This document shows, one piece after another, positions 3,358 to 60,416 of a stretch of DNA of 64,000 bases (positions are counted from its first letter, which is position 1; each line of letters begins with the position of its first letter). The stretch is taken from NCBI GenBank assembly GCA_044225175.1, contig JBGAJA010000001.1, positions 742,711-806,710 of the forward strand, read 5' to 3'. Made by a program: the position numbers and the translations under genes. The notes beneath the pieces are model-generated. The model was not told the DNA's origin. It worked only from the letters and a program-made list of their open reading frames with translations, and made no database searches. The stretch is from Candidatus Omnitrophota bacterium. GTDB taxonomy: Bacteria > Omnitrophota > Gorgyraeia > Zapsychrales > Fredricksoniimonadaceae.

Positions 3358-3361
3358 CCGC

Positions 3362-17571: not shown

Positions 17572-20500
17572 TTACGACTGATAAACTTCTTCAGGATGGT
17601 TTAGGCCAAGAAACTCTGAGACATTGGTCATTGGCTGAATGTTGGTGATGACGGGTTTAAAACCAGGGGCATTCTGCAGTTTCTGCAACATAGATGGATC
17701 GAGGTTAAATCTGATCTCTTCTCCTGCGTTACGAACTTCCAAAGGAGTTTGATTAGCTGTGAAATCAATACCGCCCTTATTCTGGAACCTCGTAGGTTCC
17801 AGTGGCTTGGTGAGTTGGGCTGGGTCCGTTTTGGGTAAGAGTGTTATGACGGAAAGGAATTGCATAAATCTTGAGAATTTTTTATCATGGGTGAATAAAT
17901 CGTTTTTTGTAAGAACACCAAATTCAAAAGAATCCTTTTGAGCATTACTCTCAAAATATTCAAATAAATGGGCAAGTTCATGAATAGTTGTATTAGTAGG
18001 CTTATGGATCGCTCCATTAGAAGAAATATCCATTCTATGAGCTAATTGAGCATTAATGTACACTTTAGAATGACCCGAACGTCTACTGAACAACCCTTGA
18101 AATGGAGCTTCTGCCTTTACTATAACAACCTGCTCAAACCCTAATTTTTGCCCAATCTTTTGCACGAGACTTAACAAACGCTGTTGTTGAGAATTTAATG
18201 CTTCCTCAGGAATAGCCAGTGATTCAGCACTTATCATGGTGGCAATATGAGACATTCGATTAGCAAGCGCTCCTCTTTGCGCACCCCAAGGATCAACTGT
18301 ATTCAAAGCCTGTTGAAAACCTGCTTCATCTATACCCAAACTCTTGGCTCGTCTTCTGGCTGCCTCTTCAGAAATAGCAGCCTGAGTTTTTATTCTGCGC
18401 ATTAAAAGACTATTTTTGCCATCTTTGGTCTGCACATTCAATTGAGCTAAAAATGGAACCAAAGACTCTTCGAAAGATCGATTTACACCCTTACCTTCAA
18501 ACCAGCCTTTAAGAGTAGTTAAATCTTGATGACTAATAAGATGACCAGCATTAATATCGTTAATCACATCAAAAAGAGACCTTTCTTTTGCCAGAGACCA
18601 TTGTGTTTGATTCTCTGGACTTAAAACATTCCAATAAGACTCTCGCGCAGAGGTTTCCCAATCTCGAGGGATTTGGCTAATATGAAAATCAGGGTTAGTT
18701 AATTCTTGATGGATTAGAGCTTTATAAAACTCGAGGGCCACATACTGTTGAATGACAGGCATAATGACGGCTTCTTGTTCAAATGAACTTCTATTTTGAA
18801 TCAAAGGCAGAGGGATCTGAATAACCAAACGAAGCTCCTCAATATGTTTACGTAAGGATTCTGGAATCAAAGCTAAGAATTCCTTCTTCAAAGACAAACT
18901 TTCAACCCTCAATCCCTTTTTATCAATGATTTGCAATGGCATATCTGAATCTTGAGTGGACCAAAGTTTCAAAGGACCATAGTTGTGCTGACCTATTTTC
19001 AAATCTATTTCTGTTAACAAATTCTTTCCTTTAACTTTGACCTGTTCTTCTGTGATACGACCTTCTTCCTTTTCCTTTTCAACAACCAATTTAAACTGCT
19101 CATTAGAGGCCATCCCTGCAAACATTTTCCATGTATGTTGGCCTAACATCTGGTCAAGCTCAGCAATAGAGCTTTGAGAATTTCTCATTCGTCTTATAAT
19201 GACTCCTTTCGAGAAATCTTGAGGATTGGCAATCCCAACCTTAACAACAAAAACTCGACCCAGAGTTCGATTGACCTTCATCTCAAAGACATAAGCTTCT
19301 TGGCCATTGTTAGCAATCATTTGCACACGATCAACACCAGAATAAATGGTGAATTTACCAGTTCCAAAAAAACCAACTGTTTGGCCATTTTGTTGGTCTT
19401 TTATTTTATTGGACTTGGGGATGAGTAAAGCCAATGCTTTTCCCAGAGGAGGCCCTTGACCATCATCCACAGCTTCTTCGACCAGATCGCCCGTTTGAAC
19501 ATCTTTGTAATAACGCACCAGTAACTTATTAGCCCCTGCATCAGAAGAGTTTTGAGGAATTTCAGCCGCATAGCGGCCTGCTTCACCTTGAACATTCACA
19601 TATTGGCTAATTTCCCGTCTAAGATTAGGATTATCGATCGCCATCATTTGGCCTATATGTTCAGGGGTAAATAATCCTGCAATATCATACATACTCGATT
19701 GATCTATTCCAGAGCGCTTGTCCGCATTGAATTGAGCAATGTTTTCAACAGGAATACCTTCCTCTTTTTGCATAAGCCATTGAATATCTTTGGGCAATTC
19801 CAAGTCTTTCGTTTGCACATGATCAACACGGTTAGTCAAGAAGTCCACAAAAAACTGGGCTTCGCCTAATTCTGTAGCAGAACGGCGATCTGTTGCAGCT
19901 AATACGATTTGTTCTAAAGGTGTATGACTAAAGGCTTCATACCAAAGGGCCAAGTAGGATTCTTTACCCTTGCCTTTTGAAAATAAAAGCAATTTGTTTA
20001 ATTGATCTACTGCAATATCAATACTTTTATTGCCATTTTTTGCGACAAGACTTAAGAATACTACCATCAACGAACAAATATGAACGCTTATCTTTTGTCC
20101 ATAAATTTCATATAAAAGATCCAACATTTCATTAATAGGCTTAACTAAATTGATGGAATGATCGGCTTCTATTTTTAAAGAATATGTCATTGCTAATAAC
20201 CAAGAAGGAATATCAGCATTCTCCAAAGAAATCTTTTCATTCATAGCCATTACAAATATTTGATGGCTTAAACCTCTATAAAATTGATCACCAATCTCAT
20301 TATCAACCAAAGTATGTTCACTGGAAGGAAATAAAGGATTGCCTTTCTTCTTTAAATCTTGTAAACCTCTCAACAGTAGACTCATCTTTTTTATAAAAGA
20401 TTCCACCATAAGGTCATCCAAATTGACATGTTCTTTACCATTAGCTAAAGCATCTTTAAAACGTGTTTTAATCTGCTCTTTTTGCTTAGAATAGAAATAC

Positions 20501-23500
20501 TTGAATATTTCTAATAATTTCCCCTTATCTTTGACTTGAAGGAAATCCAAAACAGGTTGATAGGCTTCTCTAGCACGGGCAACAATCTCATCTCTCTTGT
20601 CTGTCACCTGCTTCCAAAGCATCTCTGCCCTAATCCTTTGTTCTTCTGAAACATCGTTCGCAGGGTTATTAGAGTGTTCATGAGCATATTTTTGAGGATC
20701 AAAAAACCTTATTTCATCTGTTTTAGGATTATGAAAGATAAAAACATTACCATTGATTCCCTGCAATTCAAAATCAGCGGGGATGCCTTTGACATCAAGC
20801 CAGGGATTTTCATTGAAATGCAAGGCATAGCCACCAGAATCTAGAGATGTGAGAACATACCTATTATCTGTGGTGACCCATGAGTCTAACCTATAATCTG
20901 CGTACTTACGCGATAAACGACTGTCCTGAAAACGCATATCAAGAAGACTATTATTTAAAGTATCTTTCTTAAACCATATCCCCTGGGAATAAAACGCTTG
21001 GATCTCCTGATCAGGAACTAAAAGATCACTTGTACTAGAACGATTTAAGTCAAGCCAATAGGTAGTTTCTTGACCGCGCTGATTATCTTTAACGATATAA
21101 ATGTTTCCAACCAACATTCGAGTGGAATCTGGAGGAATCAAATTTGTGGGAACTTTGATAAAATGCTGATCTTTCAAGTGAACAATATCAATCTCTCCAC
21201 TTAGAACAAAGGCTTCCCAGTATTCAGGCAAAATTTGATCATAATTAATACTCACCATATCTCCATTACTCCTGATCTTCCAGATCGTGACATGGTATAA
21301 ATCATTAAAACTACACAAGAAAATTTCATCATTGTTTCTAACAATATTAAATCCTACCTTTGATTCACCAATAACCCTCCCATTCTTTATTAAATAAGCC
21401 TTGAGAGTAGTTTCATCCACAGACGAGTACAAAATAATTTTACCCGAGTGATCCAAAGCTAATTTTTTAGTTTGAATGGTTTCATTAGTTACGAAATTAA
21501 TAATTTGATAGTTTTTAATCCCTGTTTCAGTTGATGTAAACTCTTGAATAAGCACTTCACTGTCCTTTATGAAATATTGTTTTAACGTGTGGTTAGTAAA
21601 GTGTAGAGCATCTATTTCAGCTTGCTCGACACCTCCTCGATCGTTAACCGCTAGAAACACTGTCACTTTATCAGGTGAAGTCATCCTTGGTGTGAATACA
21701 ATAAATTTCCCAGAATCAGAAATAGACACTTCGCCATTAAGATTTTGGTTTATATATTTTTCATTTTTTAGATTATAAATTGATTTTCCATATGGACCTT
21801 CCAGCAGAACAAGCTCACCTTTTACTTCTTTAACTGTTGTATTAGGAGGCACTAAAAAGACGTATTGGGATGCATATAGGGTTTGTCGACCATCATTGCT
21901 TGTAACAACAAAAACTTCCGGCGATATTTCGAGATAATCAACATAAGATATTGGATTTAATTTAGGATTACTCAAATCTCTGAGCTCAATCTTCTGTCCT
22001 TTTCGAAAGCTAGTCCATCGAGTTGCTAAAACTAAAGGAGGATTTTCACTAAAAAAATGATCGATAGGCGCGGTTAGAATTTTGGTTGGTTCATCAGGAT
22101 CCACATAAAGCGCCTTGCCATTGTCTGGATTATAAAACACAAAATATTTGCCATCGAATTCGACTCGGGGATATTCTTTAACAAATACAGGAATTTCACC
22201 TAACCCTCCTGCCTTTAACCCATCACTAATCATATACCGCTCTGATATGGAATTCGCATAAACGATCTTATGGCTCGATTCATCATACGCGCCAGCATCA
22301 ATATTTGGATCTAAACGTGGATTCATCATTCCGAAACTTAAAGTACCATCTTCTAATAAAACAATAATAGTAACCCTAGAAAGAGTTCCAATTAATTTTC
22401 CTTTAAATTTAAATTTTGCAAGCGAATCCTTTAAACTCCATGCTATCGTGTGGGTTGGATTGCTTTCATCAATCAAGAAAGGAAAACGAGGATGCTCATA
22501 AATCTTTCCAAAAATATTTTTTAAATCAAACTCTGCGCCACCTACCCCTAAAATTCCTTCTCCATTAATCCATAAAGCCATAATAGAATTTTTGTAGTTT
22601 TCCGAAAGCAATACTTGAAAAGATTTATCTTTTAAAAAAAACTTATTGGATGCTGTTTTTAATCTAAAGGCCCTATTTCCATCTTTGTCAAAACCTAATA
22701 CAGCTTCTCTATATTTCTCTTCAGAATCATTTAACCATTCCTTCGTTTCTGTGTTATAAAGTCTCACCTGGTCCCCATACGAAAAAATAGCAACTCCAGA
22801 AAGCGGATCAATATAACAAGATTCTGCCTGCGCAATCCCAACTTGAAGATCAACATAATTAGCTGTACCAGAATTTGGTTTTCGTAATTCCATAATCGAA
22901 GAATAGGGATGGAAACTCACCTCTCCTTCAAGATCAGCTAATCTGAGTACTGACTTGTCTTTCATATCAAAAATATGATAGTCATTCATAATACCTTTTA
23001 TTTTAAAAACAATAAATCGACCGTCTGGACTTATTTTCATTTCTTTAATTTTCCTTAATTCTTGGATCTCTCCTTCAAGAAAATTAATATATTTAGATTT
23101 TTCTGTATCAAAAGCTGTATATGAACCATTACTTAACTGATAAAACACATGCCTTCCATCTGGACTTAATATTGGCTCACCTATAGCATCCATCGGGTTT
23201 TGCCATATCAGTTGACTACCCGACTTAAAGACTAAAGCATTGTGGTGGATAGGATCACCTTCAACAGCAACAGCATATTTGTACTCAACCCACATATAAT
23301 CCCCATGTAAAACTCGTATCTTTGTAATTGTTGTTGCTTCACCCACCCATTTAATCTTTTGCCCCGTTGCAATCTCATAAACGTCCCCATTTCTCAACAT
23401 ATATTTCATTCGCGCATCTGCAGGAACATACACTTGTTCTTGAGGTTGTGTCATATCTGGTGGGGTGGTTAAGAACTTCGAAATAGCTTGATTATCTGCA

Positions 23501-26500
23501 GCTCCATCATCGTAAACTTTTAAATCCGGCGTGATAGGAGTATTCATTTTAGCCGTGGGTTGCGGAGCCCCCATTTCGTAACTGGTTGCTGGCTCATCTT
23601 CAGCCAAAAGCTTGATACGTTCCCCTAAGCTTAATAATTCCGTATGTTCATCAGCGCTTAATGGTGATTTACGTCTTTGCTCTAAAAGGTCTAGAAATCG
23701 CTGGGCCATTTGTCTGGGTACAATGACATAGCCATTGGTTTTAATTTTAGGCAAATCGTGGTGTTTTAGGAAATCGAATGTTCTAACATCATAGTTCATA
23801 AACGCTCTTAATGCGTCTGGTGTGAAATCAGCCACGATCAATTCTAATGTCTTTGAACCAAGGGTTTGTTTACTGATTAAATGAAAGTCATTGTATCGAA
23901 CAATGGTGGCACCGATCGATTCAAGCGCTTTTTGGGCGCCCCATTCAAATATATCTTCATTAACAAAGAGAACTTCTTTGCCTTGCTTCATAAGTAATTG
24001 GCCAAAACCTTTCTCATTAGGCAAAAGCACATACTTACCACTAGACTGCAAGGAATTGATCAAACGAGCAATTTTCTTTTTGATCATTCGCTTGATATCA
24101 TTAACCACATAGGCATTTTCTTGATTATCAGCAATCAAAGCTTCTAAGCCAGCCACAAGTGTATTGATGTATTTGATCTTCTGCACATCTCCCATTGGAT
24201 TCTCAAGAATACCTTTGACCATTTGTTCAACAGCCAATTGCATAGGCCAAGGGTTTCGAGCGTCATGATCCGATGGAAAGATGACCTTGTCTCTGGATTG
24301 TTGAACATTGATAAGCGTAGCAAACTCAAGGGCCAAATTTCCTTCAATTACAGAATCAGGATGAGTGGTCTCAGAAAGAGGAATACGCATGATAACTTCC
24401 CCATTTCTAACAAATGCGACAGACCTGCCTGGCTCATGAACATGAATGACCTTGATCTTACGAAGCTCCTCTTGAATGTCTCCTTGTGATAAGCTTTCAG
24501 TTGCCTTTGTTCCCCCTTCACCCGGGACTAACATTCCAGATAACACAGAAATATTCATCCCACTGCCATTATCAACAACCTTGATTTCGTGTTCATTAAA
24601 ATCAATGTTAATCCATTTTTCTTCTGATTTCACAAGTTGGTGTCCACTTGGCACAATAAACTCTCTATTTTCCCATCCATTGATCTTTTCTGTCTGTTGA
24701 TTTAGCTGTGTGGTAATTTTGATGTTTTCTACAATTCCAAAACGACTATGAATATTGTCCTTTAACCATTTTAAAGAATTGACTTGGCCATCCTGTACAA
24801 TGCTTTTGACTTTTCCTATTCTTACAACAGTCCCTTGTGTCATTCCTGGAACTTGGGTGGCCTTAAGAAAATCATCATCAGTCATAGAATAAATTTGTAT
24901 TTGATAAGCCTTATGTTCATCTTTCATGACTGTTAAACGCCAGGCTGGTTTGCCTTCTTGTTTGGTTACAATATCCAATCGATCTCCTGGATCCTCCAAC
25001 CAATCTAAAATTTGTTTAACTCCCTTACCAAACTGACCAATAGAGCCGCCCAATGCATCAATGCTATTAGCAACTGCTTCAATAATCGATTGCCCCTTGG
25101 GGTTTCCACTTTGTAAGCCAATGACAGAATCTAACCGTATCTCTTCATTAGTTCCTGCCTTTAAAGATTTGATCATGGCCTCTGTATAGCCTTGTTTGGC
25201 TAAAGCTTCTAGTGTTTCGATCGGAGATTCCTGACGCTTAAGCTTTTTCTGTGCCCTTAAGAATTCTAAAAGGTTAACCCCATTAAAAGGCAAAGCATTC
25301 CAATAGCTGTTATCACCCACCGGGTTGTCGGGATCAATCCTGGCAGAAACCATGGCTAAATCGCCCATTAAAGCATCTTTGGATATGGATTGAACTGTTT
25401 TAAAAACTTCTCCTAATCCATATTTAGAAGAGTTCAAAGCTAAATCAGCTCCCCCAGAGAAATACTTTCGTGGAATTGATTGATGGGTTATAGGATCAGT
25501 TACTTCTTTGATATAGTTGTAGACGCCTTTTTTGAAAGCGGTCAAGTAACGTTGGTAAATTAATTCGATATCTGTAGGGGCAGGGCTTGTCCCTGCCCTA
25601 GATAGGGCGGGTGTAAAACCCGCCCCTACAATTTTATTCTGATCAATATACACCTTTGCTAAAATCGAATCCCTAATCTTCTTCTTGTACCAGGTAGCTA
25701 GAATCAAAGAACCATACACCTGCCTAAGCTGCACAAAGTTGGCCCCTTCATTGATCTCTTTGGTCAATTCAGGAATAACAACCTCCCGTATGATCTGACT
25801 GTGCAAAAAGGTGTCAGACACCTTTTTATCAACCCGCCCCTTCAAAAAGGTGTCTGACACCTTTTTGGAGGCTACGTAGTCTTCTTCCAACATCACCTTT
25901 AGCCTGGATTCCACTACATAGGCTGTTCCTGCTTTAGCATTCTCATAAACCACTGCCTTTTCAGGGACTATCCATACCTTGTTGAAAGTATTGACTGGGA
26001 TATTGGTTGTTCCATACCTTTTGGCGGATTCTTCATAGATTCTTCTCCAGAATCTCTTTCCTATCTCATCTTCTGGGTACATAAGGCTGGCTGTGATCTG
26101 CTTTAGCATGTAGTCCTGGGCTAATAGGTCACGTCCCATCTCGGTTTGGCCAAAGCTTTCTGGGACAATGCGGTTTTTCTCATAGGGACTTAGATTCACC
26201 CATAGGTCGGCTTCTGGGGTGGTTAAAGAGGCCAAAAAGTACTTGATTAGACGGCTGGATTCTTGCCTTAAATTATGTGCATCAGCGACGGAACGTGACC
26301 CTGGATCTAGGATAAAATCGAAGCGAAAGGGGTTATCTGGATGGACCTTGATTCCTTTGAGTAGAGGTGGGGTCACAGGCGGACTTAAATGCACTCTCAC
26401 CCCAGGCTTAGGCAAATGAATGTCCTGGGCGTACGTCGGCATAGGACCCATACTGGTCACAATAAAACTAACCAAGATGACAATGACTAATGGGGTTTTG

Positions 26501-26547
26501 AGCATATCTATATTACCTTTATATAAATATGCCATATATAAAGTCAT
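17572..26547 (-). CDS. Giant secreted multidomain protein (2991 aa): shared N-terminal module, two GHKL/Hsp90-sacsin-like ATPase-motif regions, PD40-like beta-propeller repeats, C-terminal HExxH, shared C-terminal module
   Basis: Single uninterrupted ORF. Probable true start at Met15 (MLKTPLVIVILVSFIVTSMGPMPTYA-QD signal peptide; AAAGGT ~10 nt upstream). Canonical Bergerat motifs in order: EIPQNSSDAG (I), VDDGQGPPLG (II), GFFGTGKFTIYS (III). An earlier EAVANSIDALGG / DNGSGM region. Repeats of SPDGR(F/H)(I/V)(V/F). HELAHLFEYFE near the C-terminus. Confidence 0.8.
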   Translation of the reverse strand: MTLYMAYLYKGNIDMLKTPLVIVILVSFIVTSMGPMPTYAQDIHLPKPGVRVHLSPPVTPPLLKGIKVHPDNPFRFDFILDPGSRSVADAHNLRQESSRLIKYFLASLTTPEADLWVNLSPYEKNRIVPESFGQTEMGRDLLAQDYMLKQITASLMYPEDEIGKRFWRRIYEESAKRYGTTNIPVNTFNKVWIVPEKAVVYENAKAGTAYVVESRLKVMLEEDYVASKKVSDTFLKGRVDKKVSDTFLHSQIIREVVIPELTKEINEGANFVQLRQVYGSLILATWYKKKIRDSILAKVYIDQNKIVGAGFTPALSRAGTSPAPTDIELIYQRYLTAFKKGVYNYIKEVTDPITHQSIPRKYFSGGADLALNSSKYGLGEVFKTVQSISKDALMGDLAMVSARIDPDNPVGDNSYWNALPFNGVNLLEFLRAQKKLKRQESPIETLEALAKQGYTEAMIKSLKAGTNEEIRLDSVIGLQSGNPKGQSIIEAVANSIDALGGSIGQFGKGVKQILDWLEDPGDRLDIVTKQEGKPAWRLTVMKDEHKAYQIQIYSMTDDDFLKATQVPGMTQGTVVRIGKVKSIVQDGQVNSLKWLKDNIHSRFGIVENIKITTQLNQQTEKINGWENREFIVPSGHQLVKSEEKWINIDFNEHEIKVVDNGSGMNISVLSGMLVPGEGGTKATESLSQGDIQEELRKIKVIHVHEPGRSVAFVRNGEVIMRIPLSETTHPDSVIEGNLALEFATLINVQQSRDKVIFPSDHDARNPWPMQLAVEQMVKGILENPMGDVQKIKYINTLVAGLEALIADNQENAYVVNDIKRMIKKKIARLINSLQSSGKYVLLPNEKGFGQLLMKQGKEVLFVNEDIFEWGAQKALESIGATIVRYNDFHLISKQTLGSKTLELIVADFTPDALRAFMNYDVRTFDFLKHHDLPKIKTNGYVIVPRQMAQRFLDLLEQRRKSPLSADEHTELLSLGERIKLLAEDEPATSYEMGAPQPTAKMNTPITPDLKVYDDGAADNQAISKFLTTPPDMTQPQEQVYVPADARMKYMLRNGDVYEIATGQKIKWVGEATTITKIRVLHGDYMWVEYKYAVAVEGDPIHHNALVFKSGSQLIWQNPMDAIGEPILSPDGRHVFYQLSNGSYTAFDTEKSKYINFLEGEIQELRKIKEMKISPDGRFIVFKIKGIMNDYHIFDMKDKSVLRLADLEGEVSFHPYSSIMELRKPNSGTANYVDLQVGIAQAESCYIDPLSGVAIFSYGDQVRLYNTETKEWLNDSEEKYREAVLGFDKDGNRAFRLKTASNKFFLKDKSFQVLLSENYKNSIMALWINGEGILGVGGAEFDLKNIFGKIYEHPRFPFLIDESNPTHTIAWSLKDSLAKFKFKGKLIGTLSRVTIIVLLEDGTLSFGMMNPRLDPNIDAGAYDESSHKIVYANSISERYMISDGLKAGGLGEIPVFVKEYPRVEFDGKYFVFYNPDNGKALYVDPDEPTKILTAPIDHFFSENPPLVLATRWTSFRKGQKIELRDLSNPKLNPISYVDYLEISPEVFVVTSNDGRQTLYASQYVFLVPPNTTVKEVKGELVLLEGPYGKSIYNLKNEKYINQNLNGEVSISDSGKFIVFTPRMTSPDKVTVFLAVNDRGGVEQAEIDALHFTNHTLKQYFIKDSEVLIQEFTSTETGIKNYQIINFVTNETIQTKKLALDHSGKIILYSSVDETTLKAYLIKNGRVIGESKVGFNIVRNNDEIFLCSFNDLYHVTIWKIRSNGDMVSINYDQILPEYWEAFVLSGEIDIVHLKDQHFIKVPTNLIPPDSTRMLVGNIYIVKDNQRGQETTYWLDLNRSSTSDLLVPDQEIQAFYSQGIWFKKDTLNNSLLDMRFQDSRLSRKYADYRLDSWVTTDNRYVLTSLDSGGYALHFNENPWLDVKGIPADFELQGINGNVFIFHNPKTDEIRFFDPQKYAHEHSNNPANDVSEEQRIRAEMLWKQVTDKRDEIVARAREAYQPVLDFLQVKDKGKLLEIFKYFYSKQKEQIKTRFKDALANGKEHVNLDDLMVESFIKKMSLLLRGLQDLKKKGNPLFPSSEHTLVDNEIGDQFYRGLSHQIFVMAMNEKISLENADIPSWLLAMTYSLKIEADHSINLVKPINEMLDLLYEIYGQKISVHICSLMVVFLSLVAKNGNKSIDIAVDQLNKLLLFSKGKGKESYLALWYEAFSHTPLEQIVLAATDRRSATELGEAQFFVDFLTNRVDHVQTKDLELPKDIQWLMQKEEGIPVENIAQFNADKRSGIDQSSMYDIAGLFTPEHIGQMMAIDNPNLRREISQYVNVQGEAGRYAAEIPQNSSDAGANKLLVRYYKDVQTGDLVEEAVDDGQGPPLGKALALLIPKSNKIKDQQNGQTVGFFGTGKFTIYSGVDRVQMIANNGQEAYVFEMKVNRTLGRVFVVKVGIANPQDFSKGVIIRRMRNSQSSIAELDQMLGQHTWKMFAGMASNEQFKLVVEKEKEEGRITEEQVKVKGKNLLTEIDLKIGQHNYGPLKLWSTQDSDMPLQIIDKKGLRVESLSLKKEFLALIPESLRKHIEELRLVIQIPLPLIQNRSSFEQEAVIMPVIQQYVALEFYKALIHQELTNPDFHISQIPRDWETSARESYWNVLSPENQTQWSLAKERSLFDVINDINAGHLISHQDLTTLKGWFEGKGVNRSFEESLVPFLAQLNVQTKDGKNSLLMRRIKTQAAISEEAARRRAKSLGIDEAGFQQALNTVDPWGAQRGALANRMSHIATMISAESLAIPEEALNSQQQRLLSLVQKIGQKLGFEQVVIVKAEAPFQGLFSRRSGHSKVYINAQLAHRMDISSNGAIHKPTNTTIHELAHLFEYFESNAQKDSFEFGVLTKNDLFTHDKKFSRFMQFLSVITLLPKTDPAQLTKPLEPTRFQNKGGIDFTANQTPLEVRNAGEEIRFNLDPSMLQKLQNAPGFKPVITNIQPMTNVSEFLGLNHPEEVYQS
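25573..25630. repeat. GC-rich double-hairpin palindromic element, copy G1, in-frame inside giant CDS
   Basis: TGTAGGGG-CAGGG-cttgt-CCCTG-CCCTAGATAGG-GCGGG-tgtaaaa-CCCGC-CCCTACA. Terminal inverted repeats TGTAGGGG/CCCCTACA and two internal stem-loops. Encodes ...PALSRAGTSPAPTDIE... Confidence 0.75.
25805..25866. repeat. Two 23-bp perfect palindromes (AAAAAGGTGTC[A/T]GACACCTTTTT) 36 bp apart inside giant CDS
   Basis: 25805-25827 and 25844-25866 are exact reverse complements of each other, and each is self-complementary. They encode the duplicated peptide KKVSDTFL. The spacer contains AACCCGCCCCTT, resembling half of the double-hairpin element. Confidence 0.7.
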
Positions 26548-31065: not shown

Positions 31066-33693
31066 TTAGCTTAAAGGAATATCCAAGAAGGTTTGTGGAC
31101 TTGCAAGTGGAACAATGCGAAGAATCATTGGCTCAATTCCTAAGAAATCCTCACCTTGAAATTGAGCCGTAAAGGCTGGAAATTTCATCTCAATATTTTT
31201 ACCTTCTTTAACAACATCTAATTCCATATTCTTTGAGCTCAAATCAACACCACCAGGATTATTAATCTTGGCAGCTTTTGAATGACTCATAGCAAAATCT
31301 ACTTTCTTACTAAAACCTTCGGGATACTGGGTTACCCCATCTTCTTCTTTTAAAATAATCTGATAAGTATTTCCTGATATTCTCTTATGGCTCAAATATT
31401 TCTCAACCAACTCTGCGAGCTCATCAAGTTTACTATTTAAATCATCAATCTCTACAAAATCATTCCACAGATCATGGGTTAAATTGTTAACTATGGAAGT
31501 CTTTATTCTATTTCTTAGTATTACCCTCTCAGCTTCTCCTATTGGTGGAGCCGTAAATCTAGAGCCTTTCAAAGATTCCGCAATACTATGAGGGTCATAT
31601 GTATCAATCCTCTCAAGCAATAATGAAATTATGTGTTGAACATCAGTCATTGACAAATTTCTTGATAAATCAAGGTTAAAATCACCAGCACCAAGAGGAC
31701 GAATAGTCAATAGATTAAGGGCTTCAAGAATATCGTCGTCTTTTACAAAGGGGAACGCACGTTTCAAGAATTTTCCAAGTTGTTCTTTAACATTTGATTT
31801 AGACATCAGCGGACTCATAGAAAAAAATTCTTTATGAGCTATATTAGCCAAAACAATACTTCTAATTTCTGCAGGGATGTCTGTACTTAGAATATAATTA
31901 GAATCTGTCTTAAAATTGATCGTATGCTTTAGTTTTTCTTGGATTCTAAAGCCCTCTATAGCTGAGCGGATGATCGTCAATATGGGGAGTTTTATGTTAC
32001 CATTGTTATTAAACAATCTTTCTCTGATAAGATTTGCTTCATCCTGAGTTTGATTCTCAAATAATCGATATCTATTATTCTGCATTTGATCAACCTTCTG
32101 CACTAAACGATCAAATAAATTACTATTTTTATAAAAGATCTTTTCTAAAAGCGGCAATCCTTCCTTATCAAGATAATCCGGGTTTTCAAAAGCCTCACGA
32201 AACAACCTGCCGATTACATCTCCTTTCTTAGCAAAACGTATAAATTGTTGAAAATCATAGAATGAAACATTTGAATTCATCGCAAAATCTTTAGATTTGT
32301 TATGTACTCTTGCCATATAGACACTAGCCATAGCCAAATCTCCATTGGCCCCCAGACTATCTTGAGAGGACGCCGTTGAAACACGCTGTAGTACATTCGG
32401 AATCCCCAAGTCTTGAGCTATGCCCCCTGAGAAGTACTTCCTAGAAATTCGCTGGTCTCGGGTTGATTCTAGATCTTCTTTGATGTAGTTAAATACGCCT
32501 TTTTTGTAGGCTTGGAGGTATTGATGGTAGATGGTTTCAACGTCAGATGGTGGGTTCCTCTGGGTCGCTTTCAGTTTCAACCCTGAGTCGCTTGGCAATG
32601 TGCTTGGGGACACGTTCCTGTTGATTTTGACCTGAACATGTCCCCTGGTCGGCGTTGTATAACCAATTCCTTCAATTTTCTTCTTATCTGCATACACCTG
32701 ATTCAATAATGTATTCTTAAGGGTTTGTTTGTACCATGTGGCTAGGATCATGGAATAGAACATTTGGCGCAAGGGGGCGAAGTTTTGGCCTTGGTTGACC
32801 TCGTTTTCTAATTCGGGCAATATGATGTCGCGGATGATTTGGTTTGCTAAGGCGTTGGGGGTGTTTCCCTGGGGTGCTTTCGCATTCAGCGCTGTCTCGC
32901 TTGGCAGCATGCTTGGGGACACGTTCTTATTGGTTTTGTAATGAACATGTCCCCTGGTTGGCGTTTGATTTTTTTCATTAGCTAGATAATCTTCCTCCAA
33001 CATCACCTTCAAATGCGCTCCAACGATATACCCTACGTTATTCCTCTCAAGAACCTTGGCTTTATCGGCTACGATCCATACTTTATTGAATGTATTCACA
33101 GGAATTTGGGTATTACCATAAAGGGCTTGGGCCTTTGCATAAACCTTGTCCCAGAATTTCTTGCCTAGGTCTTTCTCAGGATAAATTAGAGAAGCGGTTA
33201 ATTGTTTGAGGATGTAATCTTGGGCCAGCATGTCTCGGCCTAGCTCGGTGTTCCCTAGTTCTTCAGGAACTATTCTGTCTTTCTCATAGGGGGATAAATT
33301 CACCCAGAGGTCTTTTTCGGGGATAGTTAATGAGGCTAGGAAATATTTGATTAATTTGTTTGATTCGTCTTGTAGGGGTGACCCTTGCGGTCGCCCTTTT
33401 TGGACAGGGGCGAGCCCTGCCACTACGGACAATCCAGAATTCCCTGTATCCACGACGAAATCAAATAACAAAGGATTCTCTGGATGGACTTTCAGGCCTT
33501 TGATCATGACAGGCATATAGGCCTGGCTCAAAGACATCATTTCTCCAGGCACAGGCAATTGTAGGGGCGAGGTTCCCTCGCCCTTAATAGGCCTGGGAAA
33601 CCCAGCCCCTACATCAGCCCAAGTAGAGCGTGGCCCCAAAATGCCTGTAATTATGAAGCACAGGAGAATAACAACAGATGTCATTTTTTTCAT
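31066..33693 (-). CDS. Secreted protein (875 aa), paralogous to the N- and C-terminal modules of the 2991-aa giant protein
   Basis: Signal peptide MKKMTSVVILLCFIITGILGPRSTWA. N-terminal ~400 aa align with the giant protein (e.g. LIKYFLASLT(I/T)PE(K/A)DLWVNLSPYEK(D/N)RIVPE...NTFNKVWIV...LKVMLEEDY). The C-terminal ~70 aa are also related. Confidence 0.8.
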   Translation of the reverse strand: MKKMTSVVILLCFIITGILGPRSTWADVGAGFPRPIKGEGTSPLQLPVPGEMMSLSQAYMPVMIKGLKVHPENPLLFDFVVDTGNSGLSVVAGLAPVQKGRPQGSPLQDESNKLIKYFLASLTIPEKDLWVNLSPYEKDRIVPEELGNTELGRDMLAQDYILKQLTASLIYPEKDLGKKFWDKVYAKAQALYGNTQIPVNTFNKVWIVADKAKVLERNNVGYIVGAHLKVMLEEDYLANEKNQTPTRGHVHYKTNKNVSPSMLPSETALNAKAPQGNTPNALANQIIRDIILPELENEVNQGQNFAPLRQMFYSMILATWYKQTLKNTLLNQVYADKKKIEGIGYTTPTRGHVQVKINRNVSPSTLPSDSGLKLKATQRNPPSDVETIYHQYLQAYKKGVFNYIKEDLESTRDQRISRKYFSGGIAQDLGIPNVLQRVSTASSQDSLGANGDLAMASVYMARVHNKSKDFAMNSNVSFYDFQQFIRFAKKGDVIGRLFREAFENPDYLDKEGLPLLEKIFYKNSNLFDRLVQKVDQMQNNRYRLFENQTQDEANLIRERLFNNNGNIKLPILTIIRSAIEGFRIQEKLKHTINFKTDSNYILSTDIPAEIRSIVLANIAHKEFFSMSPLMSKSNVKEQLGKFLKRAFPFVKDDDILEALNLLTIRPLGAGDFNLDLSRNLSMTDVQHIISLLLERIDTYDPHSIAESLKGSRFTAPPIGEAERVILRNRIKTSIVNNLTHDLWNDFVEIDDLNSKLDELAELVEKYLSHKRISGNTYQIILKEEDGVTQYPEGFSKKVDFAMSHSKAAKINNPGGVDLSSKNMELDVVKEGKNIEMKFPAFTAQFQGEDFLGIEPMILRIVPLASPQTFLDIPLS
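32552..32656. repeat. ~105-bp direct repeat, copy A, inside the 875-aa paralog CDS, with internal inverted repeat GGGGACACGTTC...GAACATGTCCCC
   Basis: Near-identical to 32861-32966. Each copy encodes TPTRGHV..K.N.NVSPS.LPS. The internal ~12-bp inverted repeat could form a hairpin. Confidence 0.7.
32861..32966. repeat. ~105-bp direct repeat, copy B, inside the 875-aa paralog CDS
   Basis: See copy A. About 309 bp separates the copies. Confidence 0.7.
33371..33428. repeat. Double-hairpin palindromic element, degenerate copy P2, in-frame in the 875-aa paralog CDS
   Basis: TGTAGGGG-TGACCC-ttgc-GGTCGCCC-tttttgga-CAGGG-gcgag-CCCTG-CCACTACGG. Same termini and architecture as G1, with a degenerate 3' end. 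Encodes LAPVQKGRPQGSPLQDE. Confidence 0.55.
33560..33613. repeat. Double-hairpin palindromic element, copy P1, in-frame in the 875-aa paralog CDS
   Basis: TGTAGGGGC-GAGG-ttc-CCTC-GCCCTTAATAGG-CCTGGG-aaa-CCCAGC-CCCTACA. Encodes GAGFPRPIKGEGTSPLQLPV just after the signal peptide. Confidence 0.75.
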
Positions 33694-47533: not shown

Positions 47534-47603
47534 GTGTCATTGCAAGGAGCAAAGCGACGAAGCAATCTATTAAAGGATTGCTTCACTTCGTTCGCAATGA
47601 CAC
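47534..47603. promoter_or_regulatory. 70-bp nested imperfect palindrome immediately upstream of alaS RBS (downstream of recX)
   Basis: Outer 10-bp stem GTGTCATTGC/GCAATGACAC. Inner 9-bp stem GAAGCAATC/GATTGCTTC around loop tattaaag. Ends ~15 nt before AGGAAAATATG (alaS). Confidence 0.5.
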
Positions 47604-52495: not shown

Positions 52496-54088
52496 ATGAA
52501 TTTTAACCCATACACAATCCCACCAATTTTGTGTTTGTTACTGGCTGTTATATGTGGTGTTTTTGTTATTGGTCAGAATCCTAAAGCAAAACTAAATCAG
52601 ATTTTCTTATTTATATGCCTAACATTTATAGGCTGGTTCTCCTTTTACATCCCCTTTAATTTTCCATACTCAGAGCATCAAATATTAATTTGGACTAAAA
52701 TTTCTTTTTGTTTTATTTCTTTCATTCCTATAACGACTTTCACATTTATTTCCACTTATTTACAAATCCCTAAGAATGAATTCTGGTTTAGAATAAACTC
52801 ATTAATTGGATTAGTATTCTCTATATTAAGCCTAAGTACTGATTGGATTATTAAAGGAGTCTTGCATTTGCCTTGGCATCCTTATCCTGAGGCTGGCATT
52901 CTTCATCCACTACTAATATTACACTGCCTTTCCTTAGCTTATTGGGGGATAAAATTGACACTTATTACGCTAAAAGATAAATCCCTTTCTGATAAGCGGC
53001 GCAATCATATCAAATACATGTTTATCGCCATGATTGCATTAACACCTGGAGCCATTGACTTTCTAGGAAATTATAATATTCAAGTTTACCAAATCGGATA
53101 TATACCGGTATCTGCTTATTTATTAATAACGACAATCGCCATCATTAAATATCAATTAATGGACATTCAGATTATATTAAAGAAAAGTCTTCTTTATACA
53201 ATTTTGATTGCCGTTATTGCCCTGTTCTATTTTCTTTCCATTTATGTGGCTGAACATGCTCTACAGAATATCTTTAAATATCAGTCTATTTTTATTTCTC
53301 TATTCTTCGCCACTATTATTGCTATTGTCTTTATTCCGATTAAAAACTTTCTAGAAAAGCATCTGTTTAATAAAAGTTTAGGGATGATTGCCGAAGAAAA
53401 TGATCTTTTAAGAGTGGAAGTTGCTCAAACTGAAAAATTCAAAATGGTAGCCAATCTGGCCAGTAGCATTGCCCATGAAATCAAAAATCCCCTGACTGCC
53501 CTTCAAACTTTTAATGAATATTTACCTCAAAAAAAGAATGATCCAGAGTTTTTTGATAAATACCAAACCATCGTATCGCAAGAGCTCAATCGTATTAATG
53601 GTTTAGCACAAGAACTTTTAGCTTTTGCCAAGCCTTGCCCCCCTCAAATCCAACAAGTCAATCCCAACGAAATCATTACTCAAATCATCCAATTAGTTCA
53701 TCAGAAATGCTCTGCAAATAAAATCAATATTGAAACTAAGCTAGAGGCCCATAACCTTATATCAGCCGACCCCAATCAACTCAAACAAGCATTGCTTAAT
53801 ATTATCCTGAACGCCATTGATGCCATGCCTGATGGAGGCATATTAACTATTTCTACCAGTGTCATTGCGAGCGAAGCGAAGCAATCTTTTACTATTAGCA
53901 TCTCCGACACCGGCTCCGGCATCTTCCCTAAAGATTTACCTCATATCTTTGAACCGTTTTATACAGGAAAAGAAAAAGGCACAGGATTAGGACTTGCAAT
54001 TACTCAAGGGATTGTTGAGAAACATGGCGGGAAAATATTCGTAGAAAGCAAAATTAACCAAGGCACAACATTTACTATAAAACTATGA
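52496..54088 (+). CDS. Sensor histidine kinase 1 of tandem array (multi-TM N-terminal sensor + HisKA + HATPase_c)
   Basis: 530 aa. ~6-7 TMs, H-box [14 protein letters not shown] boxes ([25 protein letters not shown]). 4-nt overlap with next HK. Confidence 0.85.
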
Positions 54089-55674
54089 CACCATTTGCGC
54101 TTTCAGGACTCTTAATTGTGATCACTCATTTAAGTATGGGCACATTTCTACTAATAAAAAATTTTCATAATCCCATTAATCGACTGTATTCATATTTTAC
54201 TTTTGTAGTAGTAATCTGGGGATTAGCAGCTTTCAAAATCGGTACTATTCAAAATTTAGAATCTGCCATCTTATGGTGGAAAATAGGTCATATAGGTATA
54301 ATTTTCGTTCCTATTATGTTTCTTCAATTTGTTTATAGATTTATTGAACAGAAAAATCAAATCTTAATAGTTAGTATTTTTACTGTAACTATTTTCTTTT
54401 TAGCCACCCTTTTTTCCGGACATTTATTAAATACACCGGAATTTATTTTCAATTCATTCTATTACAATGCACACCCCAATCTTTTATACAAAATATTTAC
54501 TACTCTTTGGTTAATGGCTATTATTTTTAGTCATTGCCTTTTATACAAACAGTTAAGAAAAGTTTCCAAGATTAAACAGAATCAAATTAAATATTTCTTC
54601 TTAGCAATAATAATTGGATATACCGGTAGCATCACTAACTTTTTACCCGTATTTGGTATAAATCTTTACCCTTATGGAAATTTTACAATCGTTATTTATC
54701 CAATAATTATGACCTACGCCATTTTGAAATATCAACTAATGGATATAAATATTGTTATCAGAAAAAGTCTTATTTATTCTTCCTTAGTAACAGTTATTAC
54801 ACTGATCTTTTTAACCTCCGTATTAATTTCAGAAAGAATATTCCATCATTTTTTTCAATACAAAGATTTATTTACTTCCATTTTGACTGCTGGTCTTATT
54901 GCTTTAATATTTATTCCCTTAAAGAATGTGATCCAAAACTTTATAGATCATTTATTCTTTAAAGGAACAACGATTGAAATAGCCCAACAAAACGAACAAT
55001 TACGTCACGAAATAGCCCAGACAGAAAAATATAAAATAGCAGCAGCTTTATCCAGCGGAATTGCTCACGAAATCAAAAATCCTTTAACTTCCCTGTCCGT
55101 CTTTACCGAATATCTTCCTGACAAGAAAAATGATCCCGCCTTTCTTGAACAATATCAAAAGATTGCCCAACAAGAAATCGGCCTCATTAACAGCCTTTTA
55201 CAAGAATTACTAGACTTTGCTAAACCCTGCGCACCTCAAATGCAACAGACCAATCTTAATGAGGTCATCACACAAGTCATTCAATTGGTCAGAAAAAAAT
55301 GTGAACAGTCAAAAGTTCTTATTGAAACCTCACTCCAAGCTGATAAAGATCTATCTGCAGACCCAAATCAACTCAAACAAGCCCTGCTAAATTTGATACT
55401 TAATGGTATGGATGCCATGCCTAATGGTGGCACATTAACTATAACCACAGTGATATCATCACAGCACATAATCACCATTTCCGACACCGGCTCTGGAATC
55501 GCCGCCAAAGACCTCCCTCACATTTTTGAGCCCTTTTATACAAAGAAAGAAAAAGGCACTGGATTAGGACTAGCTATTACTCAAGGCATTGTAGAAAAAC
55601 ATGGTGGAAAATTAGAAGTCGAAAGCAAATTAAACCAAGGGTCTACATTTAGGATAACTTTAAAAGTAATATGA
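54085..55674 (+). CDS. Sensor histidine kinase 2 of tandem array
   Basis: 529 aa. Same architecture, H-box [12 protein letters not shown]. Paralogous to HK1, HK3 and HK4. Confidence 0.85.
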
Positions 55675-57266
55675 ACTATTTTAGCATTACTGCGATTTTA
55701 AATTCATTAACAAGCGCCTTGGCATGTATCTTTATACTTTTAAACAATACAACAACTAAAACAAATCAATATTTTGCTCTGTTTGCATTTGCTGTATCTA
55801 TATGGGCGTTCTTTTTTCGAGTATACGCTTCAAATGAAGCTTCACAGGAAGAAGCATTATTAGCTATGCGAATAGCTATTGGGGTCGCCATCTTTATCCC
55901 AACTCTCTTCTTACATTTTGCAACACACTTAATCAATGAAAATGGTAAGCATCTAAATACATTGCGCTTATTATATTTATTTACTTGTATTATAGCCTTA
56001 ACAGCATTCTCTCCACTATTCATTAAAGATGCTAAACAATATTTGCTTTTTAAATATTGGCCTGAGCCTGGTCCAACTTATATTTTCCACACTCTTAATT
56101 ACGTATTTGTTCCACTTCTAGGTTTTAAAATTTTATATTCAAAAATTAAAATAACAGCAGGACATAAACAAAAACAATTAAAGTTAGTATTTTGGGGAGT
56201 TCTTCTAGCCTATCTTGGAGGATTAACAAATTTTCCACTGTCATATAACTTCCCTTTACTGCCAATAGGCAACGTATTCGTTTCTTTCTATATAGCTTTT
56301 ATTACATATGCGATCTTTAAATACCAATTAATGGATATTAATATCATTCTTAAAAAAAGCTTAATTTATACAATTTTAATTTCAATAATTACTGTCTTTT
56401 ATTTAATTCTTATTTATCTTACCGAACATATCATTCAATCTTTATTGGGGTATAAGTCTCTACTCGTATCCATTATATCAGCTACTGGCATTGCATTAGC
56501 TTTCATACCTTTAAAAAACTTTGTTCAGGATTTTGTAGAAAAGTCTTTCTTTAGCGGATCATATACTAAAATTTCTGAAGAGAATGATCTATTAAGGGAT
56601 GAAGTTGCTCAAACTGAAAAATTTAAAGTAATTGCTAATCTAGCTAGCAATATTGCTCATGAGATAAAGAACCCCCTCACTGCCCTCAAAACTTTTAATG
56701 AATATTTACCTCAAAAAAAGAATGATCCTGAATTCTTTAACAAATACCAAACTATTGTCGCTCAAGAATTGGAACGTATTAATAACTTAGCACAAGAGCT
56801 ATTAGCTTTTGCTAAACCGTGCCCGCCACAAATGCAGCAAATTAATCCTAATGATGTCATTAACCAAGTCCTTCATTTGGTTCAACAAAAGTGTACAGTT
56901 AATAAAATCGACATTGAGACTGAATTTAAAGGTAATATCCATTTAGATGCGGATCCTAATCAGCTTAAACAAGCTTTATTGAATTTGATTCTAAACTCCC
57001 TTGATGCGATGTCTAATGGTGGAATCTTAAGAATCTCCACCAAAACTCAAAATATACATTACACAATCGACATTTTAGATACGGGCTGCGGAATTGATCC
57101 CAAAAACCTCCCACACATATTTGAGCCCTTTTATACTAAAAAAGAAAAAGGAACAGGGCTAGGCCTTGCCATTACGCAGGGAATTGTTGAAAAACATGGC
57201 GGGAAATTAACAGTAGAAAGCAAATTAAACCAAGGAACCACATTTAGAATAATCTTACCGATATGA
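55671..57266 (+). CDS. Sensor histidine kinase 3 of tandem array
   Basis: 531 aa. The kinase core is near-identical to HK1 (e.g. AEENDLLR[V/D]EVAQTEKFK..., [15 protein letters not shown]). Confidence 0.85.
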
Positions 57267-58870
57267 CATTCTTTATTATTACCAGCTTTATCAACGCTTT
57301 ATCTTCTGGATTTTGTTGTTTATTTATTCTCTTGAATAATATTAAATCTAAACCTGCTAAATCGTTTGCAATATTCTTTTGTTTCGTAGCTCTGTGGTCT
57401 TTCTTTTATTTCTTAAGCATGCTTGCCACGGAATATAACGAAGCGATTTTCTATTCAAGAGCTTTAAATACACTAGCACTATTTATCCCTCCAGCTTTCT
57501 TAAAATTTTGTATTGAATATACAAATGAAAAAAACTTGTTATTTAGAAGAATATTATTTCTTTTCTTCATCATTGATCTAGCTATCCTACCTTTTGTTAA
57601 TACTCCATACTTTATTGTAACTATGAAGCATGTTCTATTCTTTAAATTCTGGCCTCAAGCAGGCATACTCTTTCACATTTCTTTTATACAATACATGATT
57701 ATCATTCCTATTTCACTCCATCTTCTAAGGAAAAAACTAATTCAATCGACTAGACAAAATTCTCACCAACTAAAAATTTTAGTTTATTCTTTATTAATTG
57801 GATTTCTAGGAGGAGGAACAAATTATTGCCTTTGTTTAAATATTCCCATTGCACCCTATGGAAACCTACTAGTGTGCGTCATTGCTTTTGGTTTTCTTTA
57901 TTTGGTTTTTAAATATCAAATTATGGACCTGAAAATAACTCTTTCCAGAGGTCTTGCATATACCATACTAATTTTTCTTATCACTTTATCCTACTTTACA
58001 ACCACCTACATAACAGATTCTTACTTACAAAGACTCACGGGTTATAAATCTTTTCTTTTTTCATTTTTAATCGCCACAATTACTGCTTTAGCTTTTGTGC
58101 CTTTGAGAAATTACCTTCAAAACTTAATAGACAAGTTCTTCTTTAAAAAGTCGATACAGGAAGTGGAAGAAGAAAATCTTTTTCTAAGGCAAGAAATAAC
58201 CCAGTCAGACCGTCTTAAATCTATAGCTATACTAGCAAGTGGCATGGCCCATGAAATCAAGAATCCTCTCACCGTTCTTAAAACCTTCACTGAATACTTG
58301 CCCAAAAAAATGGACGACAAAGAATTCTTAAAAAAGTTTACTCCTATGGTTGCCGAGGAAGTTACCCGTATTGATAATTTGGTGCATGAACTTCTTGATT
58401 TTGCTAAGCCTGCTTCTCCTGTTCTTAAACCACTTAAAATCAAAGAGCATGTTCAAAGCACCCTAGATCTTTTGAGCAATGAGTACATTAAACACAATAT
58501 CAAAACAACTACGGATTTTCTTTTACCGGCTGATACCACAGTCATGCTTGATCCAAATCAAATTAGACAAGCTCTCTTAAACATACTTCTTAATGCCATT
58601 GATGCTATGCCAACAGGTGGACAATTAAATATAGGAATATATAGCTCTTCTGAGGGTACGATTAACATTAAAATCCAAGATTCAGGGCCAGGAATTGACC
58701 CTAAGGATTTGCCTCATATTTTTGATCCATTTTATTCCAAAAAAGACAATGGAACTGGCTTAGGCCTTGCCATTACTTATGAAATTGTTCGAAATCACGG
58801 TGGGAAGATTTTTGTGGAAAGCTCTAAAGGTAAAGGTGCGGCGTTTGTGCTGGAATTTCCTTCTATCTAA
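57263..58870 (+). CDS. Sensor histidine kinase 4 of tandem array
   Basis: 535 aa. More divergent paralog. H-box [12 protein letters not shown]. Same TM-sensor layout including the conserved KYQ(I/L)MD(I/L) amphipathic linker. Confidence 0.85.
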   Translation: MTFFIITSFINALSSGFCCLFILLNNIKSKPAKSFAIFFCFVALWSFFYFLSMLATEYNEAIFYSRALNTLALFIPPAFLKFCIEYTNEKNLLFRRILFLFFIIDLAILPFVNTPYFIVTMKHVLFFKFWPQAGILFHISFIQYMIIIPISLHLLRKKLIQSTRQNSHQLKILVYSLLIGFLGGGTNYCLCLNIPIAPYGNLLVCVIAFGFLYLVFKYQIMDLKITLSRGLAYTILIFLITLSYFTTTYITDSYLQRLTGYKSFLFSFLIATITALAFVPLRNYLQNLIDKFFFKKSIQEVEEENLFLRQEITQSDRLKSIAILASGMAHEIKNPLTVLKTFTEYLPKKMDDKEFLKKFTPMVAEEVTRIDNLVHELLDFAKPASPVLKPLKIKEHVQSTLDLLSNEYIKHNIKTTTDFLLPADTTVMLDPNQIRQALLNILLNAIDAMPTGGQLNIGIYSSSEGTINIKIQDSGPGIDPKDLPHIFDPFYSKKDNGTGLGLAITYEIVRNHGGKIFVESSKGKGAAFVLEFPSI

Positions 58871-60054: not shown

Positions 60055-60416
60055 TATTTTTTATTTAATTCAGATAGGACAATTTGTTCAAGCTCTTCAA
60101 GCACTAACGGTTTGTGGATAAACCCGACTACACCTAATGCTTTAGTTTCCTTAATAGTTTCTTCATCTTCAACACCGGAAACCATGATGATCTTTGTTGA
60201 TTGGTCTTTTTTTCGAAGCTCTTTGAGGACTTCCACACCAGTCATTTGCTCCATGCGCACATCTAATAACACTAAATCAGGCTTTTCCATCAAAATAATC
60301 TCCAAAGCTTCTGCTCCACCGCTTGCCGTAAAAACTTCAATATTTCGTTTCTTAAAATAACTTTTAGCAAATTCTCTGATGTCAATTTCATCATCTACAA
60401 TCAATAACTTAGACAT
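60054..60416 (-). CDS. Single-domain response regulator (receiver)
   Basis: The likely start is MSKLLIVDDEIDIRE (AAGGAGG 9 nt upstream). The track ORF starts 6 codons earlier. Phospho-acceptor D in LVLLDVRM. Confidence 0.8.
   Translation of the reverse strand: MSKLLIVDDEIDIREFAKSYFKKRNIEVFTASGGAEALEIILMEKPDLVLLDVRMEQMTGVEVLKELRKKDQSTKIIMVSGVEDEETIKETKALGVVGFIHKPLVLEELEQIVLSELNKK

Follow-up and report, generated by a model that had tools for sequence, protein, structure and literature searches.

Repetitive extragenic palindromic (REP) dimers are not self-mobile and are thought to be cut and copied in trans, as folded single-stranded DNA, by REP-associated tyrosine transposases (RAYT; HUH/Y1 enzymes), and RAYT-mediated movement leaves no target duplication. 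Palindromic repeats that are read as protein are reportedly known from Rickettsia, whose Rickettsia palindromic elements (RPE) are said to have been described by Ogata and colleagues in 2000; RPE-1 measures 100 to 150 bp. REPs that carry a GTAG tag form head-to-head (HH) dimers, which can lie in frame within genes, encode 20 to 30 amino acids (aa) and sometimes occur twice per open reading frame (ORF) (Di Nocera, De Gregorio and Rocco, 2013; PMC3733652). Such intragenic REPs are a documented minority behavior, in-frame dimers are most abundant in Opitutus terrae, placed in the PVC superphylum, and RPE-4 and RPE-6 are members of the CGTC-tagged superfamily, for which there is no dedicated transposase (PMC3733652). 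HH dimers of GTAG-REPs are equivalent to the BIMEs of E. coli and the REPINs of Pseudomonas (PMC3116915, PMC2817692). We describe here a 64,000-nt stretch from a Candidatus Omnitrophota bacterium (the window; GenBank assembly GCA_044225175.1, contig JBGAJA010000001.1, positions 742,711 to 806,710) in which two dimers of this class, P1 and P2, lie in frame in the gene for an 875-aa secreted protein. A third copy (G1) lies in a giant paralog and a fourth (IG1) between genes:

31066..33693, minus strand: host gene of the 875-aa secreted protein, an uninterrupted 875-codon ORF carrying P1, P2 and two inserts of another hairpin element, D7
33561..33612, minus strand: P1, intact head-to-head GTAG-REP dimer, in frame; 70.9 bits (covariance model)
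33372..33426, minus strand: P2, partly decayed dimer of the same family as P1, in frame; 70.5 bits (covariance model)
17572..26547, minus strand: host gene of the 2991-aa giant paralog, carrying G1 and a pair of in-frame palindromes
25574..25629, minus strand: G1, intact dimer 306 codons into the giant ORF; fold z -6.3; 79.4 bits
36624..36680, minus strand: IG1, intergenic dimer of the same family; 78.5 bits (covariance model)

P1 (GTAGGGGCTGGGTTTCCCAGGCCTATTAAGGGCGAGGGAACCTCGCCCCTAC) follows the plan GTAGGGG-CTGGG-TTT-CCCAGGCC-TATTAA-GGGCGAGG-GAA-CCTCGCCCCTAC, with a 6-nt spacer between its two hairpins and CCCCTAC at its far end. It encodes VGAGFPRPIKGEGTSPLQ (residues 27-44), directly after a signal-peptide-like sequence, MKKMTSVVILLCFIITGILGPRSTWA (a hydrophobic N-terminus ending TWA), and before a conserved LPxPG motif. 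Its minimum free energy is -38.7 (z -5.5). P2 (GTAGTGGCAGGGCTCGCCCCTGTCCAAAAAGGGCGACCGCAAGGGTCACCCCTAC) has the same plan and encodes VVAGLAPVQKGRPQGSPLQ (residues about 89-107). An earlier note on this DNA had placed two in-frame copies at 33371-33613, one after the signal-peptide cleavage region and the other about 45 codons later with a decayed terminus, and coordinates and translation agree with it on each point: both copies lie inside the 875-codon ORF, and P2 is 45 codons beyond P1. The terminus of P2 has one substitution (GTAGTGG on the gene strand, CCACTAC on the plus strand), each of its stems has one mismatch, and it folds more weakly (z -2.55) than P1 (-5.5) or G1 (-6.3). P2 is the older insertion and is now eroding like any other coding sequence; P1 and G1 remain intact and are presumably young.

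The four copies constitute one family. All are 52 to 58 nt long, with termini of the type GTAGGGG...CCCCTAC and two GC-rich hairpins, and GCCCCTAC occurs 4 times in the window versus 0.63 expected. A covariance model built from the four copies recovered those loci with E values of 1e-21 to 1e-24, and a scan of the 64 kb with it found no copy besides P1, P2, G1 and IG1. The folds of P1, G1 and IG1 have z-scores of -5.5 to -6.8, and shuffled sequences never fold as well. An Rfam scan of the window at the gathering thresholds found two tRNAs only and no known RNA family at the elements. IG1, which was absent from the earlier list, begins 2 nt past the stop codon of an anthranilate synthase (trpE-like) gene, and a place just past a stop is the usual REP position. 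G1 encodes VGAGFTPALSRAGTSPAPT in the loop preceding a conserved IYQRYL helix, and a metagenome locus (L181) has a copy at the same loop. Since P1, P2 and G1 differ in hairpin sequence and occupy three sites, they are not duplicates of one another. A GC-rich stretch of the giant gene, 26355-26400, had also been proposed as a decayed remnant. This proposal failed, as the stretch gave no covariance-model match and no fold (z -0.85); it was rejected as ordinary conserved coding sequence encoding VRVHLSPPVTPPLLKG, found in at least about 90% of 120 homologs.

The element class, left unnamed in the earlier note, is the GTAG-tagged REP dimer linked to RAYT transposases: an HH dimer equivalent to a BIME or REPIN. 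Each half has GTAG, a 7- to 9-bp GC-rich stem and a 3- to 7-nt loop, within the bounds of REP palindromes (stem of 5 to 13 bp, loop of 2 to 20 nt, alternative complementary stem residues), and the halves are inverted, with GTAG outside and a spacer of 5 to 8 nt. GTAG lies next to the stem, with GTAG...CTAC at the outer ends of the window copies except for P2 (GTAGTGG) and one end of IG1 (CAAC). As expected of inverted dimers, the minimum-energy fold of P1, G1 and IG1 is a single long hairpin; that of P2 is two hairpins closed by a terminal GTAG/CTAC stem. Pairing holds at 95% of stem positions in the window copies, where 7 pairs are changed on both sides, and at 98% of positions in 17 matches from elsewhere (both strands of about 9 loci in other genomes), where 10 pairs are compensatory; no shuffle attained these values. 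The base before GTAG is a pyrimidine at 20/20 Omnitrophota ends and 86% of metagenome ends, and the search for a target-site motif found nothing beyond it. No target-site duplication was found at the four window copies, and no flank pair is a direct repeat (P1, GGGCTGAT|...|AATTGCCT; P2, GATTGTCC|...|AAGACGAA; G1, ATAAAATT|...|AGATATCG; IG1, CATTAATC|...|AATACCGA).

Metagenome contigs were scanned by exact pattern for one common variant (loop CTTGT), which yielded at least 120 stretches with at least 129 copies on contigs with a GC content of 0.33 to 0.73, from many phyla; in metagenomes the family is thus abundant. Among the matches listed, the copies are mostly in short open frames (open frames, not gene calls). 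At three of these loci (L087, L162 and L161), GTAGGGG REPs lie on both sides of a gene that jackhmmer matches to E. coli RayT. The two ORFs scanned against Pfam (L087 and L162) match Y1_Tnp, and the name REP element-mobilizing transposase RayT is attached to many homologs of the L087 protein. Taken as a whole, the element family falls within the definition of a REP/RAYT system. In these RAYT genes of other phyla (L087 146-812, L162 7382-7999 and L161 501-1439), a GTAGGGG dimer also interrupts the coding sequence in frame, just past the HUH motif (for example, ...PNHVHGIVRIVGATLVVAP...RAGTRPAPT...).

The analysis covered 1.23 Mb of Omnitrophota DNA, comprising 80 loci around genes of the host protein family, two loci found by protein look-up and the window. 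The elements resemble GTAG-REPs in having a terminal GTAG beside a 6- to 9-bp GC-rich stem with a short loop, in forming inverted HH pairs foldable as two hairpins or one long hairpin, in stems that vary between copies with compensating changes, in one copy lying just past a stop codon and in flanking RAYT genes (here in metagenome loci). Like the Opitutus terrae dimers, they are in frame, about 20 aa long and sometimes present twice in an ORF. They differ from GTAG-REPs in that the copies seem few (4 dimers in the 64-kb window; 16 dimers and about 10 monomers in the 1.23 Mb, which are pooled from many genomes), the spacer is very short (5 to 8 nt) and no RAYT was seen in the Omnitrophota DNA sampled. 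They also lack the extragenic predominance of REPs: 3/4 window copies and 14/16 dimers are inside ORFs, mostly in one secreted family, whereas published intragenic cases are scattered or in DNA repair genes. RPEs are likewise palindromic repeats in frame in coding genes, translated and tolerated in surface-exposed or nonconserved protein parts, but the descriptions set them apart (52 to 58 nt and GTAG here versus 100 to 150 bp for RPE-1 and CGTC for RPE-4 and RPE-6), as does the host lineage, and the resemblance appears to be functional only. Miniature inverted-repeat transposable elements (MITEs) derived from insertion sequences with DDE transposases are also short, nonautonomous, foldable, bounded by inverted termini and occasionally in frame in genes; the elements here, however, lack a target-site duplication, are much shorter (52 to 58 nt) and have REP GTAG tags as termini. 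Because in-frame GTAG-REP dimers and the behavior of RPEs are already documented, the kind of event is known. The novelty lies in the lineage and host family and in a strong bias to that family's loops. A literature search on Omnitrophota and palindromic repeats found nothing relevant.

The first ~430 residues of the 875-aa protein are an Omnitrophota-specific domain. This N-terminal domain defines a family with 1642 matches at an E value of ≤1e-5 among 8000 candidates scored, and all organism names given by the sources are Candidatus Omnitrophota or Omnitrophica. Pfam assigned no family to either paralog, and a Foldseek search of the AlphaFold model against the PDB gave no match with an E value of <0.001. 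The last ~70 residues of the 875-aa (31066-31280; GGVDLSSKNMELDV...) and 2991-aa (17572-17790; GGIDFTANQTPLEV...) proteins are also alike (BLASTP E value of 0.001), and a GGI..N motif in the family consensus at the C-terminus suggests a shared C-terminal module.

Comparison of the paralogs and their homologs places each in-gene copy at an indel. The two proteins are 44% identical over about 460 residues of the N-terminal domain (BLASTP), and the giant protein has gaps of 15 and 13 aa opposite P1 and P2, respectively; where it carries G1, the 875-aa protein has a different, longer insert (D7b). The giant paralog had been said to lack elements at the P1 and P2 sites and to carry its own copy ~300 codons in, which these gaps and the 306-codon offset of G1 bear out. 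In a MAFFT alignment of 120 homologs, the P1 columns are occupied by 0/120 sequences, the P2 columns by ~10% and the G1 site by 0 to 10%, and neighboring columns are ≥90% occupied. In an AlphaFold model of the 875-aa protein (28-sequence alignment; pTM of 0.61), residues 24-42, 245-277 and 337-382 are coil with a predicted local distance difference test score (pLDDT) of <50 and residues 91-100, in the P2 region, are coil with a pLDDT of 54, always between confidently predicted elements; low pLDDT at insert-specific residues is partly expected from alignment gaps, so these scores are supportive but not independent evidence. Thus, the location in linkers that the earlier note had proposed agrees with predicted low-confidence coil and low column occupancy, and the element-encoded peptides were not found to be part of conserved, structured sequence common to both paralogs.

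The distribution of the elements in the Omnitrophota DNA is strongly biased. A dimer scan that required both termini and applied a folding filter found 16 dimers, of which 14 are within the family N-terminal domain, which makes up 9.6% of the bases (about 66-fold enrichment; binomial p of 5e-13). When single REP units from a looser scan, judged by eye, are included, the totals are about 19 in-family loci versus about 10 outside, the latter mostly intergenic (still about 17-fold). All in-gene copies are in frame and use two of the three phases (VGAG... or CRGG/RRG...); the remaining phase would read TAG. Since two reading phases are in use, the conserved unit is the DNA element and not the peptide. 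Copies are found at five loops: after the signal peptide and near residues 91, 243 (the commonest), 347 and 410. The closest homolog of the 875-aa protein, P0009 (59% identity; locus L002), has a single hairpin with both tags at the exact P1 junction (GTAGGGGCGATTCACGAATCGCCCTTAC|AATTGCC). Single hairpins with GTAG and CTAC tags were seen at L002 2937-2964 and 3099-3126, exactly at the P1 and P2 loops of this homolog, and at L069 1502-1529; such hairpins resemble the product of an HH dimer that collapsed through deletion between like arms.

Element copies were compared with the genes that carry them. At locus L049, two paralogs carry elements that are 95% identical with flanks at 60 to 69%, and at L060, the element of one paralog is inverted relative to that of another (91% identity to the reverse complement; flanks, 60 to 68%). 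Another genome (L016) has, within a family gene, a copy that matches IG1 at 95% identity, and the flanks of the two are unrelated. Such likeness among element copies, far above that among the host paralogs, indicates recurrent insertion or replacement and not simple inheritance. Similar inserts occupy the P2 loop in the homologs P0007 (L001), P0003 and P0009 (L002). P2 and the L001 copy at this loop are 74% identical (flanks, 57 to 74%); P2 is thus no closer to that copy than the flanks are, and some of its stem pairs are gone, as would be expected of an old insertion. In a neighbor-joining tree, the smallest clade that holds the proteins with P2-loop inserts has 39 members, mostly empty at that loop, and a single ancient origin of the inserts in the 875-aa protein, P0007 and P0003 does not appear to be supported. 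The GRPQGSPLQ-type hairpin of P2-loop inserts is a common REP variant.

Other hairpin elements are present at the same loops:

32858..32965, minus strand: D7a, unrelated hairpin element GGGGACATGTTC...GAACGTGTCCCC, in frame in the variable loop after EEDYLA; z -3.7
32549..32656, minus strand: D7b, second in-frame D7 copy, in the loop that holds G1 in the giant paralog
25804..25867, minus strand: two 23-nt palindromes AAAAAGGTGTC(A/T)GACACCTTTTT, in frame in the giant gene, in the loop that holds D7a in the 875-aa gene

D7a and D7b are ~108 nt long and 79% identical (GGGGACAYGTTC...GAACRTGTCCCC) and encode TPTRGHV...NVSPS...LPS; the D7a region is the stretch with a pLDDT of <50 at residues 245-277. 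Of the D7 copies in the Omnitrophota DNA, 24/25 are in-family. One arm of D7, GGGGACAC, is consistent with GGGGWSAS, a motif reported in inverted repeats on either side of RAYT-like (TIRYT) genes, which we note as a lead only. The palindromes of the giant gene are near-perfect and 16 nt apart, encode KKVSDTFL twice and fold at -37.8 kcal/mol (z -6.7); a single KKVSDTFL is present at this loop in the homologs P0003 and P0011. Both D7 and the 23-nt palindrome sit in loops that hold GTAG dimers in other family members. Of two further hairpins, TCATTGCGAG..GCAATC is in-family in 8/12 copies, with 8 family genes from other genomes carrying it in frame, and ATTCCCGC..GCGGGAAT is in-family in 10/32 copies and outside in 22/32. 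In the window, the former was seen as an inverted pair at 47537-47600, between the gene for alanyl-tRNA synthetase and its neighbor, and as one copy at 53862-53886, read in frame as VIASEAKQS toward the end of a gene for a histidine kinase. Strong hairpins of any kind are present in 61/103 family genes, clustered at residues 20-60, 80-100, 220-260 and 340-380. Their density is 0.85 per kb versus 0.54 in the surrounding DNA, only 1.6 times as high, and 22/32 ATTCCCGC..GCGGGAAT copies are outside, which weakens the idea of the family as a general hairpin sink. The hairpin excess in the family is specific to GTAG dimers and D7.

The account that we hold to be probable is that REP dimers were mobilized as folded single-stranded DNA by a RAYT-type enzyme and inserted repeatedly into loops that can take extra residues without harm, and that only in-frame, stop-free copies were kept. 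Separate copies would have entered surface loops that are not conserved, one after the signal peptide (P1), one about 45 codons on (P2) and one about 300 codons into the paralog (G1), and the survivors would be those whose length and phase keep the frame open. They would then be translated as Gly/Pro/Ala-rich loop extensions of 18 to 20 residues. For the concentration in this family, we favor recurrent insertion or replacement at loops that may be under relaxed or diversifying selection. The data show the anatomy of the elements, their in-frame placement, their status as indels, their kinship with a pan-bacterial REP family found beside RAYT genes elsewhere and the closeness of the copies relative to their hosts; that a RAYT moved them in this organism, that the inserts are translated and why they concentrate in one family are inferred.

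Several observations weigh against this account. The element lengths of 52 to 58 nt are not multiples of three, so in-frame copies need an unexplained adjustment at their junctions. The homologs compared are at most 59% identical, and insertion is read from paralogs and such homologs. A jackhmmer search from E. coli RayT found no RAYT homolog in the window or the 82 other Omnitrophota loci, which leaves the transposase step a proposal for this lineage; the best 120 RAYT homologs that carry names are from other phyla. Finally, an intragenic concentration in one family is not predicted by random insertion followed by tolerance. The earlier note had ascribed the copies to repeated, independent insertions tolerated because they land in linkers; the indels at three sites favor separate insertions kept in frame in linkers, but tolerance alone does not account for the distribution.

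One alternative is that the hairpins are selected nucleic acid signals, in mRNA or single-stranded DNA, that might pause translation at domain boundaries or promote recombination and loop diversification, REPs being merely a convenient source. The ~66-fold density of dimers in the family domain (14/16 in 9.6% of bases) agrees with this, as do the 24/25 in-family copies of the second, unrelated family D7, the clustered positions of strong hairpins in 61/103 family genes, the covarying stems and the use of different phases for a peptide that is not conserved. However, about 40% of family genes lack a strong hairpin, hairpin density is just 1.6 times that of the surroundings, and P2 is visibly decaying. 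Moreover, among the matches listed, the element appears to be mostly noncoding and is RAYT-linked in other phyla, and stem covariation is usual in REP families, where it can arise via transposase coevolution or intrastrand templating. We regard selected signals as an improbable explanation of the inserts.

A second alternative dispenses with repeated transposition: one or a few entries would have spread to the same loops of paralogs by duplication and gene conversion via conserved flanks. Copies do recur at the same four or five loops, and no parts of the gene are more conserved than the sequences that flank the inserts, KVMLEEDYLA and QIIREIILPE. The L049 paralogs share both the element and its 3' junction (CTAC|GGGAA), and P2 and the L001 copy have diverged about as much as their flanks (74% versus 57 to 74%). 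Against conversion, junctions vary between genes from 3 to 7 residues after DYLA, the L060 paralogs carry opposite orientations, a 95% identical copy is intergenic in the window, P1, P2 and G1 occupy three different sites, and the proteins with P2-loop inserts do not group closely (any clade that holds them has at least 39 members, mostly empty at that loop). This makes spread by conversion very unlikely.

Chance GC-rich palindromes or a native low-complexity linker, which the presence of only four copies in the window and the likeness of the peptides to generic Gly/Pro-rich linkers might suggest, deserve negligible weight and are ruled out by the covariance-model matches (E values of 1e-21 to 1e-24, with nothing else in 64 kb), the homologs without these residues, the exact termini common to at least 120 metagenome loci and the failure of shuffles to match the folds of P1, G1 and IG1.

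Elsewhere in the window, four paralogous genes of about 530 aa stand in tandem at 52496-58870, at a spacing of about 1592 nt; the three that were scanned are 7TM-HisKA-HATPase histidine kinases by Pfam. A fifth, GAF-containing histidine kinase is encoded on the opposite strand from these four at 60409-62577. The ORF at 3391-4674 (427 aa; HTH_23/28/32) is bounded by inverted repeats of 29 to 36 nt at 3361-3413 and 4701-4752, and the whole segment (3361-4752), between the neighborhood of two tRNA genes, looks like an insertion sequence.

REPs are usually seen as extragenic, and here P1, P2 and the two D7 inserts make up about 12% of the residues of one protein. With these copies, Omnitrophota, a candidate phylum, joins the few lineages with REP dimers read as protein. 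For annotation, stretches such as VGAG..., ...GRPQGSPLQ and ...APAPT are element-derived loops and not domain sequence and should be masked in alignments and structure prediction. A further step, that the loops of this secreted family are preferred landing or retention sites for unrelated REP/REPIN-type hairpins, by targeting or positive selection and not mere tolerance, is a tentative and on balance doubtful proposal. If it is true, the elements would supply in-frame variation in loop length and sequence for surface proteins, or selected hairpin signals, and if the concentration proves to reflect targeting or selection, the family would offer a natural example of mobile hairpins driving surface-protein diversification.

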